Assembly: GCF_056746865.1 (NCBI RefSeq)
Contig: NZ_CM163382.1
Length of the DNA stretch: 64,000 nucleotides
Direction: 5' to 3' (one strand)
Each line of letters starts with the position of its first letter. Positions within the stretch are counted from its first letter, which is position 1. Below the pieces are notes generated by a model, which was not told where the DNA came from, did not search any database, and saw only the letters and a list, made by a program, of their open reading frames with translations. The position numbers and the translations under genes are program-made. Shown here in pieces: positions 4,436-29,580 of this stretch.

Positions 4436-5314
4436 CTACAGATGTTGCTCTCTGGTTGTTGTACTAGTCGGGAGATCCTGTGGATCGACATTTTCCTTCG
4501 CGTGAGCATTGATGCTGGAAGCGGTAAACGTCAGGATGAATACAACCGTGAATAAGATAACAATCGTTGGTGCTGGTGCGCTGTCTATAAAAAAGGAGAG
4601 CCATACACCAGTCATTGAGACCATTACCGATATACCGAGCGCCAGCAGGAGCGCAATATGAAAGCGTTGCGTCAGGAGTACCGCAATGGCGCCAGGCGCA
4701 ATGAGCAGAGAAATGGAGAGAATGATACCTACCGCTTTCAGCGTCGCCACAATGGTCAGAGAGACCATGCACAGCAGCCCATAATGCAGCCATCTCGTAT
4801 GCAAACCGCTTACCTGCGCCTGTTGATAATCAAAGCTGAACAGCAAAAAATCCCGCCATTTTACGCTAATAACAAGTGTAACCAGCCCGGCAATAATCAC
4901 CGTCTGGATTATATCGCCGATGGTTACCCCGAGCATGTCGCCGAAAAGAATATGGTCAAGATGTACGTCGGGTTTGACTGCAATATACAAGATCAGACCT
5001 GCGGCAAACATGCCAGAAAAAACAATCCCCATCACTGTATCTTGCTTGATTCGGCTGTTGTCTTTCAGGTATCCCGTCGCCACCGCGCAGAATACTCCGG
5101 CGACGAATGCTCCTCCCGCCAGAGGAAAACCCAGTATCCACGCAAGCACGATACCAGGAAAAACCGCATGACTCATCGCGTCTCCCATCAGTGCCCAACC
5201 TTTCAGGACCAGAAAGACCGACAGCAGCGCACAGGGTATGGAAACTACCAGTGAAATCAGCAGTGCGTGACTCATAAAGGTGAACTGCAGTGGCTCCAGT
5301 AATAATGCCATCAT
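4436..5314 (-). CDS. sitD: Iron/manganese ABC transporter permease SitD
   Basis: 292-aa polytopic membrane protein; last gene of four-gene operon with overlapping stop/start codons. Confidence 0.85.
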   Translation of the reverse strand: MMALLLEPLQFTFMSHALLISLVVSIPCALLSVFLVLKGWALMGDAMSHAVFPGIVLAWILGFPLAGGAFVAGVFCAVATGYLKDNSRIKQDTVMGIVFSGMFAAGLILYIAVKPDVHLDHILFGDMLGVTIGDIIQTVIIAGLVTLVISVKWRDFLLFSFDYQQAQVSGLHTRWLHYGLLCMVSLTIVATLKAVGIILSISLLIAPGAIAVLLTQRFHIALLLALGISVMVSMTGVWLSFFIDSAPAPTIVILFTVVFILTFTASSINAHAKENVDPQDLPTSTTTREQHL

Positions 5315-6168
5315 GAGCGATCCTCCAGCACCTTATGCGCACGCTGACGATTTGCCAAAAGCCCATGGGTGGGTGCAAAGACAAATGCTAAAAGAAACAG
5401 CAGTGTCTGCGCCACCACGATGATTCCACCTGTCGCTCCGTCCAGAAAGTAACTGACCCACGCGCCGAGGAAACTGGTTACACTGCCAATAGTTACAGCA
5501 ATCACGAGCAGGCGGGGAAAACGATCGGTTAACAACCATGCTGTTGCGCCAGGGGTCACTACCAGACAGATCACCAGAAAAGCCCCAACCGTTTGCAATG
5601 CTGCAACGGTCGATACCGCCAGCAGTGTGAAGAAGAGGATTTTTAATCTTCCTGGATATAATCCAATAGCACGGGCGTGATTTTCGTCGAAAAAGGTCAC
5701 CATAAGATCTTTCCATTTGAAAAAGAGCACTATGACTGAGACAATGCCAATGATAGTGAGTTGCAGGATATCCGCCGGAGCGATTGCCAGAATATTGCCC
5801 AGGACGATGGTCTGAATATTTACGGATGTCGGGTTTAATGACACCATAAACAGCCCCAGGCCAAAAAAGGACGAGAAGATCAGGCCGATGATGGCATCTT
5901 CTTTTAAGCGAGTGCGTTGGTTAAGAAACAGCATGCTGCCCGCAGCCAGTCCACCGGAAAAGAAGGCCCCCAGAGAAAACGGAAGCCCCAGCATATATGC
6001 CCCCGCAACACCCGGGACGATAGAGTGCGACAGCGCATCGCCAATCAGCGACCAGCCTTTTAGCATCAGATAGCATGACAGGAAAGCGCAGAGACCGCCG
6101 ACCATCGCCGCGACCCACATCGCATTGAGCATATATTCATAGCTGAAGGGTTCCAGTAGCACGTTCAT
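5311..6168 (-). CDS. sitC: Iron/manganese ABC transporter permease SitC
   Basis: 285-aa hydrophobic permease; 4-bp overlap with sitD and sitB. Confidence 0.85.
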
Positions 6169-6992
6169 CTTTCTTCCCTCTGCACCGCTGATGGTCGATA
6201 AGCCACAAAGGGGCGTTCATCGTCAGTAATAATGCTTTCTTCCGAGCCTTTAAGTGTGACATGGCGTAGTACGCCGCTAAAAGCCAGCTCCAGGTTCTCG
6301 GCTGTAAAAGTGGTGTCTGTCGGCCCGCTTGCCAGGACGGTGCCTTTGACCATGACCGTATAATCGCAAAATGTCGTGACGGATCCGAGATTGTGCGTTG
6401 AGACAAGCATCGTTTTGCCTTCCGCGCGTAACTCCCTCAACAGGCTGATGATTTTGGCTTCGGTTTTCACATCAACGCCGGTAAAAGGTTCATCCAGCAG
6501 GATCACATCACCCTGCTGTGCAATCGCTCTCGCCAGAAAGACGCGTTTCTTTTGTCCACCGGAAAGCTCGCCGATTTGTCGATGGCGAAAATCTACCATA
6601 TCGACACGTTCCAGCGCATCGGTGACAACCTGACGATCCCTCTTATTGGCTATACGCAACATACCCATATGCCCATAGCGGCCCATCATCACCACATCTT
6701 CCACCAGTACAGGAAAGGACCAGTCCACTTCTTCTGACTGCGGGACGTAGGCAATCAGGTTTTTCTGCAGAGCCTGCCGCGTGGGAATACCCAGAACAGA
6801 TATCTTTCCGGTAGTCAGACGCACGAATCCCATAATCGCTTTAAATAACGTCGATTTTCCGGAACCGTTTACCCCAACCAGAGCGGCAATAGATCCGCCT
6901 GGTACTGTGAAGGATGCATCGCGCAGTGCTGTGTGCCCGTTACGCCAGGTGACAGTAACGCCATTAACGACAATACCCGCAGATTGCATCAT
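6165..6992 (-). CDS. sitB: Iron/manganese ABC transporter ATP-binding protein SitB
   Basis: Walker [10 protein letters not shown] and ABC signature LSGGQKKR in translation. Confidence 0.9.
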
Positions 6993-7906
6993 TACTTCTC
7001 CCTTTTCCCGGCTTTAATTCCCTGCACCAGCGTACTGGTAGTAACCTTCAGAAGGTCGATATACGTAGGTACCGGGCCGTTTTCTGTGCTCAGGGAATCG
7101 ACATAGAGCACACCGCCGTAGTGTGCGCCGGTTTCACGCGCAACCTGACGCGCTGGTTTATCGGAAACCGTACTCTCACTAAATACCGCTGGGATATTAT
7201 TTTTCTTCACTATATCAACCACTTTACGTACCTGCTGGGGTGTTCCTTGTTGATCGGCATTTATCGGCCACAGATAAAGCTCTTTTAGCCCCAAATCGCG
7301 TGCGAGATAAGAAAAAGCCCCTTCACTGGTGACCATCCATCTTTTATTCTCAGGGAGTTCAGCAATCTGCTTACGCAGGGGGGCAAGGGTTTGGGTAATC
7401 TTGGCTTTATAAGTATCGGCATTACGTTGGTATGTTTTTGCATTTGCCGGATCGTATTTTATCAACGCATCACGAATATTATCGACGTAAATCAAAGCAT
7501 TATCTGGTGACATCCAGGCATGAGGGTTAGGTTTTCCCTCGTAGGGGCCTTCGGTGATCCCTACTGGCGTCACACCCGAAGAGACAATCACTTCTGGAAC
7601 ACCATTGAGATGCTGGTAAAAGCGCTGGAACCACAATTCCAGATTCATTCCATTGGCGAGAATCAGTTGTGCCCCCTGCGCACGTTTAATATCGCCAGGG
7701 GTAGGCTGATACTCATGAATTTCCGCACCGGGCTTGGTTATGGATGAGACTTCTGCAACATCTCCAGCCACGTTTTTGGCCATATCTGCGATGATGGTAA
7801 ATGTTGTAATGACCTTGAATTTTTCAGTTGCACTCGCCTGAAATGCGATCGAGCAGGTGAGGGCGAGGAACCCCAAGAGCATGGTTAATTTTTTTATTGA
7901 GTGCAT
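6992..7906 (-). CDS. sitA: Periplasmic metal-binding protein SitA
   Basis: 304 aa with N-terminal signal peptide; first gene of operon; start overlaps sitB. Confidence 0.85.
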
Positions 7907-7938
7907 AATTCAGTACCTATAGTGAGCAAAATTAGAAC

Positions 7939-7960
7939 AAACATAGCAACGGCTATGTTT
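7939..7960. promoter_or_regulatory. MntR-box-like perfect palindrome upstream of sitA
   Basis: aaacatagcaacggctatgttt, a perfect inverted repeat matching the recalled MntR operator of mntH, about 35 bp upstream of the sitA start. Confidence 0.5.
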
Positions 7961-7979
7961 TATAGCATAATCTATACAA

Positions 7980-8000
7980 ATGCAAATGGTTATCATTAAT
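7980..8000. promoter_or_regulatory. Fur-box-like element upstream of sitA
   Basis: atgcaaatggttatcattaat; minus-strand reading taatgataaccatttgcat resembles the GATAATGATAATCATTATC consensus. Confidence 0.35.
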
Positions 8001-8140
8001 GTATTTGTTTGTAAGTGATGAGATGCTCTTCCTCTCCTTCACGACAGCCTTCAATTACGCCATGATGGATAAACTGTAACCATAAAAGGAGAAATGTACT
8101 GAACACATCCTGCCCTGTTAAGAGAGGTGCACTGTGATGG

Positions 8141-9287
8141 ATGAAGGGTAAAATTGTCTGCTGTGGAGCCTCTCAGATTTCCGGCATCATAGTGCCCAAT
8201 ACGGGATGCAAAAGCGCCCTCAGACTGGCGACTCCACAAATGAAATATACACCGGTTGGCGTTGATATCGCAAAGTATCTGATTCAGGTTCACTTCATCA
8301 ATGAGTACACGGGCGAAGTGGTGGACAAGCAGCTACGTAGCAAGGATTTTCTGACGTTCTTCAGCAACCGGGAACCCTGTCTGATAGGTATGGAGGCTTG
8401 TGGAGGCTCCCAACATTGGGCGAGGGAACTGGAAAAAACTGGGACACAAAGTTCGGCTGTTGCAAGCTCGCTTCGTTAAAGCATTCGTCATGGGCAACAA
8501 AAATGATGTGATGGATGCGCGTGCTATCTGGATGGCGGTACAGCAGCCCAGTAAAGATATCGCTGTTAAAACGGAAGAGAAGCAGTCAGTTCTGGTCCTG
8601 CACCGTTCGCGCAGACAACTGGTGAAGTTCAGAACCTCGCATATTAATACCCTTGGCACGCTCCTCGAGTTTGGTGAAATCCTCCACAAAGATTGGACAG
8701 CGATGGACAGAAAGCTACCGACAGCCCTAGAGCGAATGAAGACGAACCTGCCGCCGTATCTCATCACTGTGCTTGAATACCAGTACAACAGACTGAGTGA
8801 GCTGGGCATGCAGATAGATGGCCTTGATAAACAGATTAACAGCGTGGCACGGCAGAGCGAAAACTGTAAGCGCCTAATGGAAATCCCCGGTGTGGGGCCG
8901 TTAATCGCTACGGCGGTGGTCGCCACCATGGGCGAGGCCTCAGCATTTAAATCCGGACGTGAGTTTGACGCTTATGTCTGTCTGGTGCCGAAGCAGACGG
9001 GGTCCGCTGGGAAGGTTCGCATGCTGGGGATAAGCAAACGTGGGGATACCTACCACCGGACATTATTTATCCATGGGGCAAGGGCGGCAGCATTGCTTAC
9101 CAAAGAACCCGGCCCATGGATCACGGAGCTGAAAAAACGGCAGCCGACAGGTGTAATGCCGATCAGTTTAGGAGCAGTTGACCGATCCAGGGTCTGTTTA
9201 AGAATCCTGAAACGCTCACTCGTTTCCGGATTTTTGTGCACAGAAAAACCCCAGCTAGGCTGGGGGCCGGAAAGCTTTCAGCTTTGA
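8141..9287 (+). pseudogene. IS110-family transposase, frameshifted
   Basis: ORFs 8141-8479 and 8400-9287 overlap in different frames; N-terminal GVDIAK/MEACG and C-terminal IPGVGP/GISKRG motifs. Confidence 0.6.
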
Positions 9288-9325
9288 GCCAGTTATTAAA
9301 ACCCCTTTTGATTTGTTAAAACACC

Positions 9326-9616
9326 TTGCGGTCTGGCAACTGCAAGTGTCAAACAAGAAATCAAAAGGGGGTCCCAATGGGGAACGAAAAGAGCTTAGCG
9401 CATACCCGATGGAACTGTAAATATCACATAGTTTTTGCGCCAAAATACCGAAGAAAAGTGTTCTACAGAGAGAAGCGTAAAGCAACAGGCAGTATTTTGA
9501 GAAAGCTGTGTGAGTGGAAAAGTGTACGGATTCTTGAAGCTGAGTGCTGTGCAGATCATATCCATATGCTTGTGGAGATCCCGCCCAAAATGAGCGTATC
9601 CGGCTTTATGGGATAG
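9326..9616 (+). pseudogene. IS200-family TnpA, 3'-truncated
   Basis: MGNEKSLAHTRWNCKYHIVFAPKYRR...HIHMLVEIPPKMSVSGFMG matches IS200 TnpA; left-end hairpin cccttttgatttgtt/aacaagaaatcaaaaggggg upstream; ORF cut short at 9616. Confidence 0.65.
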
Positions 9617-10347
9617 ACGGCATTAATCGCTTCCGGGAAGCCTTTCAGGCCGTCCACGAAGGCGATAAGGATATCGTTCAGGCCGCGATTTTTCAGTTCC
9701 GTCAGTACATTCAGCCAGAACTTTGCACCTTCATTTTCGGCCAGCCACATATCCAGCAGCTCTTTCTGACCGTCGGTATTGATGCCCAGCGCGAGGAACA
9801 CCGCTTTGTTAATGACACTCCCGCTGTGACGAACCTTAACCACAATACAGTCAAGATAAACAATGGGATACAGTGCATCCAACGGTCGGTTTTGCCATTC
9901 AGAGACCTGTTCTTTAACCGCATCGGTCACTTTGGATATCAGCGTGGGCGAGACATCGGCGTCGTACATTTCTTTGAAGGCTGAGGTAATTTCGCGGGTA
10001 GTCATCCCTCTGGCATACAGCGCCAGGATCTGGTTGTCCATGCCGGTAATGCGGGTCTGATTTTTCTTCACCAGTTGTGGTTCGAAGGAACCATCACGAT
10101 CAGGTGGAGTACGTAATTCCATCGGCCCGTCGGTAGTGGTGACGGTTTTCGTGGAATAGCCATTACGGAAGTTGGTTCCCGATTTGGTCTGATTTTTTTC
10201 ATGTCCCAGATGGTGAGTCAGTTCAGCGTTGAGAGCTGCCTCAACACTTATTTTCTTGAGCAGGCGATCGAACTGACTGAGATCTTCAGGGGTTTTGAGA
10301 TTTTTGGCCAGTTCGTTAGCCAGAGCCTGCAATTGTGTGTCGTCCAT
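9556..10347 (-). pseudogene. IS256-family transposase, C-terminally truncated
   Basis: 263-aa ORF with IS256-like N-terminus (LNAELTHHLGHEKNQ, VYLDCIVVKVR); abuts the truncated IS200 piece. Confidence 0.6.
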
Positions 10348-11267
10348 AATTTAGCTTTCATTTGATGTTGAATTGAACAGATCAAAATCAGGCAATTACA
10401 TAAATCTATGTACAGGCTCAATGCCGGCGCTGGTATTGTAGAAATCAATCCTGCCCCTGATGTCGGAGATACTCTCGTTAACCTTCCTGATTGTATCCTC
10501 TGCTCAGTCAATGGGTTGCCAATGGGGGCACCCTTTCCTGACTGATTCGTCATTTCATTCTTATTGTATGTTACTGGCATTACACCAGTGCTGGCATACT
10601 TTCCTGCGTGTCTGCACCGGTTTGACAAAATTCAACAGGGATAAAATAGTGCAGGAAACTGAAGCATTACTTGCAGAGCCGGGAGACATCCGGCGTTTTA
10701 TTCAACAGGCAGTGGATCACTGGCCGCATTTTCTGATTGTCCACTTCACACACAATTCGACAGAAGGAAACATCAACGGACAACAGATTCATGCATTCTG
10801 AACTTCCTTTTATGAACGTATTACTGAACGTAATCACACTGACAGTCCATCCTCGCCGGTGGTATTACGCTGGTTGCGTGAACAACATGAAGGAACAACA
10901 ATACCTGTTGCTGCTCAGCCATGTGGTGGCATGCAGCGGCACTTTAAGCAGCACAGGGCACTTTGAACTGCTCCGGGAATCCTGGAGACTAAACTCCCTG
11001 AGAAAGAGGTAAACAGGATGAGTATGATTCACAATTGGGGTAATTTGTTCCATTGCCTCAAATGCTGGCTGTACGCCACAGACTCTGCGTGTCTGGGTTA
11101 GCCAGTATGAGCGGGATACAGGGGCGCTTCACACATAACATTCCTTCTAATTTGCATAATTAATTACACTGATAGTCACATTCAATAACTATCATAAGCT
11201 ATCATCTGGCTGACTGTTATTTCGCAACAGTTATTGAGTAAATCTTTAACCTGTTAACAGAGGGTTT

Positions 11268-11792
11268 ATGAAACGTAAACTTATTGCCTTTGTGATTCTG
11301 GCTACATCATCCTGTGGATATGCAGCCACCAAAGATGTAACAATGAATCTTGTTGATAGTGACGGAAAAGAGCGAAATATTGGTAAAATAACCATCCAGA
11401 AGACACCCTACGGGCTGCTGTTCACCCCTGATCTTCACTCCTTACCCGCCGGCATTCATGGTTTTCATGTACATGAAAACGCAAGTTGTGCTCCTGCCCT
11501 GAAAGATGGAAAAACTGTCGCTGCTTTATCTGCAGGTGGTCACTTTGACCCGGAAAAAACAGGGAAGCATCTCGGTCCATGGTCTCCTGATGGCCACCTA
11601 GGTGATCTCCCTGCGCTTTATGTCACTCATGACGGAAAAGCAACCTACCCGGTGCTTGCGCCAAGACTATCTGAATTAAAGGAGCTCGATGGCCGTTCGC
11701 TAATGCTCCACGCAGGAGGTGATAATCATGATGACCATCCTGAACCTCTAGGTGGCGGTGGTGCAAGAATTGCCTGTGGTATCATCCCATAA
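11268..11792 (+). CDS. sodC: Periplasmic Cu/Zn superoxide dismutase, acquired paralogue
   Basis: 174 aa with signal peptide, copper-site histidines (HGFHVHE, GGHFDPE) and C-terminal [12 protein letters not shown]; diverged from chromosomal SodC as recalled. Confidence 0.8.
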
Positions 11793-20946: not shown

Positions 20947-20965
20947 GATAATGAGAATGATTTGC
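20947..20965. promoter_or_regulatory. Fur box upstream of the Iha-like receptor gene
   Basis: gataatgagaatgatttgc, strong match to the Fur consensus, about 50 bp upstream of the start. Confidence 0.45.
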
Positions 20966-28600: not shown

Positions 28601-29580
28601 TATTCTTTGTGCAGAGCAGTGATTGCCCAGGCTATTCGGGCCAGTTTATTTGCCAGAGCGCAGGCGACAATATTTGAATGCTTATTGTCGAGTTGCTTTT
28701 GAACCCATTCAGCAACTCTGCCCTATTGATGCTCCAGCCGCATCATGAACGAGCGGGCGTACAGAACAAGTAACCGACTCGTTTGCTGATCCCCAGCAGC
28801 ATTGATTTACCACCGGTACTGTATTGTCGGGGAACAAGTCCTGTGGATGCTGCAAAATCCCTACTGCACGAAAATTGTTTACCATCACCAAGCTGGGATG
28901 ATAGCAGGCTGGCCGTCATCGGCCCAACACCGGGGATTGTCATGATTCGTTGCACAGTAGCGTCAGCTTTGATTGACTGGTTTAACTCTGATTCCAGTTC
29001 TGTTATTTGCTCAATACGATAAAGATAGTGAGCATGTAATTTCATCAGCAAGCGACTCAGATATTCAGGTATTTCGTGTTCAGCTAACGCCAGAGATAAC
29101 CATTTTATTGCGGCATCCCCTGTCGGCAGTCTGATTCCAAATTCCAGCAAGAAACCGTGGATCTGGTTGTTTTTTTTCACCTTATCTCTGATGAGCGATT
29201 CTCTGACCCGATGTAATGCCCTCATTGCCTGCTGGGTTTCTGTTCTGGGCTGGACAAAACGCATTGATGGTCGTGAAGCCGCTTTGCATATGGCTTCTGC
29301 ATCAATAAAATCATTCTTATTACCTTTGACAAACGGACGCACGAATTACGGAGAGATAAGTTTTTCTTCATGACCGATGTCGCTGATACGCCGGGCCATA
29401 AAATGCGTACCAGCGCAGGCTTCCATAACAACTACTGAGGATGGACATGTTGCCAGAAACTGCATCAGCTTCGTACGCGTAAACTTTTTACGCAAAAGCG
29501 CATTGCCAGATTTATCTTGACAATGAATATGGAAAGAATGTTTACCGAGATCGATACCAATAAGCGCAACGTTTTACATG
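28601..29580 (-). pseudogene. IS110-family transposase, disrupted
   Basis: ORF 28743-29342 (IS110 core, IPGVGP, GISKR); N-terminal piece with in-frame TAA near 29400; C-terminal ...ACALANKLARIAWAITALHKEYQA in shifted frame ending at 28601. Confidence 0.5.

Follow-up and report, generated by a model that had tools for sequence, protein, structure and literature searches.

What does the short stretch of DNA in front of sitA encode, and what has the neighbouring mobile DNA left of it? The question concerns positions 7939-8000 of a 64-kb window (the whole stretch that was analysed, 64,000 nucleotides). The original prediction described a perfect MntR-type palindrome and a Fur-like box at this place, and read them as consistent with joint control of the operon by manganese and iron. 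Our analysis leads to the same reading. We put the probability at just under nine in ten that 7939-8000 is the control region of sitABCD, in which a contiguous 62-bp array of repressor sites is laid over a sigma-70-type promoter and is subject to dual repression by Mn-MntR and Fe-Fur. The dual arrangement of manganese and iron repressors at sitA is already known. The case is therefore a clean positive control, in which a textbook dual metal-repressor promoter was recognised from sequence alone.

The sitABCD operon and its setting

An ORF search places sitA on the minus strand, and its upstream side therefore runs toward higher coordinates (Table 1). The start of the gene was compared with RefSeq by using a 701-bp query (7700-8400), which is 100% identical to DNA annotated as sitA (WP_000555617.1). 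In profile searches, SitA matches manganese substrate-binding-protein families with scores below the family-specific cut-offs. For SitB, the match is to NF011630 (manganese/iron ABC transporter ATPase) with a score of 586 bits, where the cut-off is 393. The 7700-8400 query also spans the junction between the sit upstream region and IS DNA. This junction is found in 53 complete E. coli genomes at a minimum of 80% of the query length and 99% identity, and it is chromosomal in every case among the matches listed. The sit genes are found in 2697 of 5426 E. coli genomes. The mntR gene lies outside the window and is found in nearly every complete E. coli genome (5421 of 5426).

The window is a heavily IS-eroded genomic island that carries iutA, sitABCD, sodC, a group II intron ltrA pseudogene, ibrAB-like genes, iha and ICE remnants. 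The annotation of SCU-115 (NZ_CP054368.1), one of the 53 genomes with this junction, gives the order iutA, IS remnants, sitD-sitC-sitB-sitA (minus strand), IS110, IS200/IS605 and IS256 remnants, and sodC. Farther along the same region of SCU-115, the island is riddled with IS elements, carries iha, and is bounded by a tyrosine integrase beside ynjA/ydjXYZ/xthA. Within the window, this end of the island is marked by the tyrosine integrase at about 58793-59980, which adjoins ynjA/ydjXYZ/xthA. Most mobile-element genes of the island are pseudogenes, and the metal-uptake genes iutA, sitABCD and iha, together with sodC, are annotated intact. The sitABCD operon has a part in the virulence of Shigella, of Salmonella, and of E. 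coli from avian and other extraintestinal infections (PMC3852070). Given this role, an intact control region within the island matters for annotation.

Table 1. Coordinates of the sitABCD operon, its predicted control elements and the adjoining IS110-family remnants
Feature	Position in window	Strand	Remarks
sitB, sitC, sitD	4436..6992	-	remaining operon genes, annotated intact
sitA CDS	6992..7906	-	periplasmic Mn/Fe-binding protein; first gene of sitABCD; ATG at 7906
Proximal MntR operator (putative)	7939..7960	.	perfect palindrome AAACATAGC-N4-GCTATGTTT; covers predicted +1
Distal, weaker MntR-type palindrome	7958..7979	.	core ATAGC-ATAA-TCTAT, 7962-7975; covers predicted -10 and spacer
Best promoter candidate (predicted)	7959..7986	-	-35 TTTGCA, 7986->7981; 16-nt spacer; extended -10 TGcTATAAA, 7967->7959
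Second Fur 19-mer (putative)	7976..7994	+	ACAAATGCAAATGGTTATC; overlaps the first, 6-bp offset
Fur box 19-mer (putative)	7982..8000	-	ATTAATGATAACCATTTGC, read 8000->7982; overlaps predicted -35
10-bp residue gtatttgttt	8001..8010	.	between Fur box and IS end
IS110-family element A, left-end remnant, ~79 bp	8011..8089	+	terminus GTAAG(C/T)GATGAGATGG...
IS110-family element B, decayed	8088..9230	+	transposase pseudogene ~8240-9170; both ends approximate

Putative repressor sites over the predicted promoter

The palindrome nearest to sitA is the 22-mer AAACATAGCAACGGCTATGTTT. As predicted, it is a 9-N4-9 palindrome without a single mismatch, and it has exactly the two half-sites of the mntH box of K-12, AAACATAGCAAAGGCTATGTTT. 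The 22-mer is unique in the window even when three mismatches are allowed, and a match of any kind appears in 2 of 100 dinucleotide shuffles. Positioned 32 nt upstream of the start codon of sitA, the palindrome overlaps both the predicted -10 and the predicted +1. A second palindrome of the same type lies directly upstream of it. Its core, ATAGCATAATCTAT, matches at nine of ten core positions, with one mismatched half-site (TCTAT) and poor outer positions. Cores of the form ATAGC-N4-GCTAT with at most one mismatch occur four times in the entire window, and two of the four are the sitA pair. A 22-bp MntR matrix was built from 36 sites with the E. coli sit alleles left out. It ranks the proximal palindrome first in the window (25.6 bits) and the distal palindrome second (16.7 bits), and the maximum score on shuffled windows averaged 11.4 bits. 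The same matrix also gives 14.1 bits at 38039-38060, a position distant from any start codon.

Hexamer scoring on the strand of sitA yields the promoter candidate of Table 1, with a predicted +1 near 7952 and a leader of about 46 nt. The second-best candidates shift the +1 by 10-20 bp to either side. The TG-extended -10 is also the top candidate in three other E. coli sit alleles. This predicted promoter is absent from the output of a stock promoter scan, whose stated rules require a T at the sixth position of the -10; the hexamer TATAAA does not have one. A C immediately preceding the -10 favours sigma-S. From the C at this place in sitA we infer a possible fit with the effect of sigma-S that has been reported for sitABCD (PMC8970401). 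Every MntR and Fur site overlaps the best promoter candidate, and all predicted promoter and operator elements are contained in the 104 bp that separate the start codon of sitA from the IS DNA.

This layout suggests how the operon may be repressed. Two overlapping Fur 19-mers (7976-8000) lie over the -35, the distal MntR palindrome lies over the spacer and the extended -10, and the proximal palindrome lies over the predicted start. When Mn2+ is plentiful, MntR dimers would occupy the palindromes, and when Fe2+ is plentiful, Fur would occupy the AT-rich array. Either repressor would block RNA polymerase, so that the operon would be on only when both metals are scarce. Repression by occlusion is also suggested by the layout of mntH. 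The sites themselves are observed, with their scores, conservation and positions, whereas repressor binding, the start site and occlusion are inferred by homology with mntH and with sitABCD of Salmonella and Shigella. According to reviews, Mn-MntR and Fe-Fur both repress sitABCD and mntH in Salmonella, Shigella and E. coli (PMC3852070, PMC8264917, PMC8970401, PMC3212961). The literature on this point includes fusions in fur and mntR mutants (PMC8970401) and a 53.8-fold increase of sitA in a Salmonella fur mutant (PMC3212961).

The Fur site is the less obvious part of the array. A search of the 64-kb window for the Fur consensus with up to three mismatches returned nothing. The 19-mer ATTAATGATAACCATTTGC agrees with the consensus GATAATGATAATCATTATC at 14 of 19 positions and was missed because of its five mismatches, and a matrix was built instead. 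The matrix took the best site from each of 16 K-12 Fur-regulated promoter regions (mntH, fepA-fes, fepD-entS, fepB-entC, fhuA, fecI, fecA, cirA, tonB, fur, exbB, fiu, fhuE, ryhB, fhuF and feoA) and was iterated to convergence. It was seeded with the consensus, and consequently the matrix score and the consensus match are not independent. The 19-mer at 7982-8000 scores 16.57 bits and ranks third among about 128,000 window positions, in agreement with the predicted Fur-like box. Its outer edge is 94 bp from the ATG, which places both kinds of site within the 100 bp upstream of sitA that had been proposed. The matrix scans for the two regulators thus agree with the original prediction, since the MntR palindrome ranks first and the Fur 19-mer third in the window.

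The most serious alternative is that the MntR site functions alone and that the "Fur box" is decayed or a chance match in AT-rich DNA, in which case the operon would respond to manganese and weakly or not at all to iron. The 14/19 match that escaped the consensus search would fit this reading, and so would the score of the site, the lowest among four E. coli alleles. The normal footprint of Fur is about 30 bp. With a rearrangement junction at the distal edge of the site, part of that footprint would fall on foreign DNA. However, leave-one-out scores of the 16 K-12 training promoters span 9.8-21.7 bits around a median of 15.4; the 16.57 bits of the sitA site exceed this median, and 9 of the 16 promoters score lower. 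Sites that reach this score average 0.135 per dinucleotide-shuffled 64-kb window. In a local control, 13 of 5000 dinucleotide shuffles of the AT-rich 104 bp at 7907-8010 reached it (0.26%), and the site is above chance in its own context. Fur sites are typically made of overlapping 19-mers offset by 6 bp. The second 19-mer at sitA has this offset, scores 15.13 bits (rank 5 in the window) and resembles the K-12 fepA-fes site GCAAATGCAAATAGTTATC from the same matrix build. On direct reading, TGATAACCATTTGCA also agrees with the 7-1-7 motif TGATAATnATTATCA at 12 of 14 positions. These observations make control by MntR without Fur unlikely, and dual repression by both regulators is the preferred reading.

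Other Fur-matrix matches in the window were recorded as well. The top two scores are at 20947-20965 (plus strand, 19.98 bits), inside a frameshifted hypothetical ORF downstream of an ibrB-like gene, and at 29306-29324 (minus strand, 17.33 bits), within amiC; neither position coincides with an obvious promoter. A borderline match of 13.3 bits (11020-11038) lies about 230 bp upstream of sodC (11268-11792, Cu-Zn superoxide dismutase), a gene that is 3.4 kb from sitA with IS remnants between them. The siderophore receptor/adhesin gene iha (start near 38922) is reported as Fur-regulated. A good Fur site was not found within about 400 bp upstream of it (38500-38925), where the best score was 6.2 bits.

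IS110-family remnants at the edge of the predicted promoter

The original prediction placed an IS110-family element about 140 bp further upstream. This distance needs correction. IS DNA starts at 8011, which puts it 105 bp from the start codon of sitA and only 11 bp past the outer edge of the Fur 19-mer. The figure of about 140 bp is the distance to an ATG-initiated ORF at 8141. The IS110 neighbour is also not one element. It consists of two abutting remnants, A (8011-8089) and B (from about 8088). The terminus of element A abuts unrelated flanks in five other loci, which represent four distinct contexts, and in a sixth locus it is about 4 bp off the estimated junction. On plasmid pCH425, a terminus of this type lies directly upstream of an IS110-family transposase gene. 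A common target motif that could account for insertion beside the Fur box was not found in the left flanks of element A, which are unrelated and in some cases AT-rich. For element B, homology to intact E. coli IS110-family elements begins at 8088-8092. Its ORF at 8400-9287 matches NF033542, the IS110 family RNA-guided transposase (DEDD), at 207 bits against a cut-off of 140. The transposase is incomplete, and identical DNA in RefSeq is called frameshifted, lacks the C-terminus and is annotated as a pseudogene from 8240. On its 3' side, element B is delimited solely by the point near 9231 where IS200-like homology sets in. Both transposase remnants face away from sitA.

Elements of types A and B are nested in a comparable way elsewhere, in an unrelated chromosomal context, where the internal position differs. 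On the far side of element B, about 100 bp (9231-9330) recur in most of 2,957 matching E. coli records and look like the left end of IS200. The plus strand of 9246-9367 strongly matches the Hfq-binding RNA STnc490 in Rfam (129 bits, E = 3e-27), and a truncated IS200/IS605 tnpA (about 9377-9613) follows directly downstream.

The boundary of the sit-derived DNA is sharp. Megablast homology with all other sit loci stops at window positions 7998-8000, and beyond this point an alignment shows no more than weak similarity. Mere allelic divergence was considered as the cause of the break and rejected: about 2,600 other sit loci all stop there, and the IS terminus is independently defined. The 10 bp between the Fur box and the IS end (8001-8010) are probably a diverged remnant of the ancestral sit upstream region. 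A conserved stretch (CAGCAGGAAACAACCTAATCCCTGTTTTGGG...) located 45-110 bp upstream of the Fur box is common to other sit loci from three unrelated contexts and is missing from the window allele.

Such a close junction raises the possibility that insertion or rearrangement of the adjacent IS crippled the native promoter, leaving the operon silent or driven by an IS promoter and the operators as relics. IS DNA only 11 bp from the Fur box is what this explanation would call for, as is the loss of at least about 45 bp of upstream sequence common to other sit contexts. A promoter-like match directed toward sitA is also present inside the IS DNA (8121->8093), but the scan that produced it found 2 promoter-like sites against 1.1 expected, which is not above chance. 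RNA polymerase starting farther upstream would still need to read through the repressor sites. The predicted -35, the predicted extended -10 and all operators are retained, sitA to sitD are annotated intact amid many neighbouring pseudogenes, and the junction persists in 53 genomes. We regard a crippled promoter as very improbable. Both this explanation and that of a functional MntR site alone are disfavoured because of the scores, the retention of all elements within 104 bp, and the intactness of sitABCD among pseudogenes. That the promoter survives, as had been proposed, is a reasonable view of a locus in which the predicted elements lie within 104 bp and sitABCD is annotated intact; the IS, however, is much closer than had been thought.

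Conservation of the array and comparison with known systems

Conservation of the array was examined in a scan of 100,044 species genomes with SitA, which returned at least 80 loci, with no E. coli, Shigella or Salmonella among the matches listed. The core ATAGC-N4-GCTAT, with at most one mismatch, is present in 18 of 19 other Enterobacterales sitA loci among the matches listed. When these promoters are aligned on the palindrome, the half-site bases ATAGC and GCTAT are fixed across genera and the N4 spacer is variable, which is the signature of a protein-binding site and not of an RNA stem. Site order is conserved as well: the Fur site is distal and the MntR site proximal in each of four independent contexts in E. 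coli and in the majority of the 19 other Enterobacterales species among the matches listed. Among the same matches, the loci of Enterobacter, Lelliottia, Shimwellia, Pluralibacter, Citrobacter, Klebsiella and Cedecea, and most of those of Erwinia, have an MntR-type palindrome with a Fur site (15-21 bits) placed 17-44 bp upstream of it; two Erwinia and two Pantoea sitA loci have weak Fur sites only. Across the other E. coli alleles and most enterobacterial orthologues together, the Fur sites upstream of the MntR palindrome score 15-25 bits. Most of the sampled alphaproteobacterial and Pseudomonas sitA loci have a Fur/Mur-like box at best and are without the MntR palindrome.

An RNA hairpin, whether a terminator or a leader structure, is a far poorer explanation of the palindrome and can be set aside: a terminator scan does list 7960->7939 on the minus strand (a 9-bp stem and a 4-nt loop followed by GTTCTAATTT), but G-C pairs make up only three of the nine, the T-run is poor, no upstream minus-strand gene needs termination, the stem bases are fixed across genera without covariation while the loop varies, identical half-sites stand 14 nt before the mntH ATG, a +1 near 7952 would leave the hairpin incompletely transcribed, and a permissive Rfam search of 7700-9700 gave no family match in the operator region (STnc490 and one sub-threshold match only). 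The terminator reading was rejected on the grounds of conservation. Protein operators for MntR and Fur remain the preferred reading of the array. The proposed co-regulation by manganese and iron is supported by the identity of the half-sites with mntH, the Fur matrix scan, the conserved layout and published reviews.

The spacing of the two MntR palindromes appears to be rigid. From core to core, the distance is exactly 19 bp at K-12 mntS, in each of the four sit alleles of E. coli and in 16 of the 19 other Enterobacterales sitA loci among the matches listed. It is tempting, if doubtful, to suggest that the sitA operator is not one MntR site but a rigid tandem of two MntR palindromes, found also at mntS and retained among the Enterobacterales, so that two MntR dimers would bind cooperatively over the -10 and +1, and that in this lineage an IS end 11 bp from a weakened Fur box may have lowered iron control relative to manganese control. 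A description of the second, distal MntR site of sitA was not found in the accessible literature. If the fixed 19-bp tandem is confirmed and has so far been undescribed, it would refine models of MntR repression.

The K-12 mntS (rybA) promoter is a parallel to the tandem. It has two MntR-type cores, TTAGC-N4-GCTAT and ATAGC-N4-GCTAT, with the same 19-bp spacing as at sitA. In contrast to sitA, the product of mntS is a small protein and not a transporter. It has been proposed that mntS descended from the signal-peptide region of sitA and retained MntR control (bioRxiv 10.1101/2023.06.02.543501). The tandem common to mntS and sitA fits this proposed descent.

The manganese importer gene mntH of K-12 offers a close comparison for the dual array. 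Its upstream region reads ...TTTGATAATCATTCTCGTTTGGCATAGCATG-AAACATAGCAAAGGCTATGTTT-(14 nt)-ATG. Both mntH and the sit operon encode manganese importers, both have the MntR half-sites AAACATAGC-N4-GCTATGTTT, and in both the MntR box is preceded by a Fur box that overlaps the best -35 candidate. The two promoters differ in several details. In place of the two palindromes with 19-bp spacing at sitA, there is a single full palindrome at mntH, together with an extra upstream CATAGC half-site. The N4 spacer on the sense strand is AAAG in mntH and CCGT in sitA, and the distance from the MntR box to the ATG is 14 nt in mntH and 32 nt in sitA. The mntH box is reportedly a validated MntR operator, a result attributed to Patzer and Hantke in 2001. 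Dual repression of mntH by Fe-Fur and Mn-MntR is described in reviews (PMC3852070, PMC8264917).

The sit operons of Salmonella and Shigella offer a further comparison for the window allele. In Salmonella, mutation of the putative MntR and Fur sites is said to have abolished the metal control of sitABCD in the work of Ikeda et al. in 2005, in J Bacteriol 187:912. The operons of Salmonella Typhimurium and Shigella flexneri (Ikeda et al. 2005; Runyen-Janecky et al. 2006) are orthologous to the one in the window, and according to reviews they are repressed by MntR with manganese and by Fur with iron. Unlike the Salmonella operon, which lies in SPI-1, the window allele is part of a chromosomal island of E. 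coli and has IS remnants beside it.

Finally, the window allele can be compared with the other E. coli sit alleles, which are chromosomal by uspF, chromosomal and icd-adjacent, or on a plasmid by IS1. These alleles have the same MntR boxes, -10 and leader, and are about 92-96% identical over the first 299 bp of the query. Unlike the window allele, they have stronger Fur boxes (17.9-24.7 bits) and about 45-110 bp more of common upstream sequence, which in the window is replaced by IS110-family DNA from about 8000. The window allele has the weakest Fur-matrix score of the four (16.6 bits), followed by the plasmid (17.9 bits), the icd context (19.8 bits) and the uspF context (24.7 bits). With the weakest Fur box and foreign DNA on its distal flank, it is possible that iron control is attenuated in this allele. 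Natural sit alleles with Fur boxes of 16.6-24.7 bits, including one that has IS DNA directly beside it, provide a ready series for relating the strength of the Fur site to the balance of iron and manganese control.
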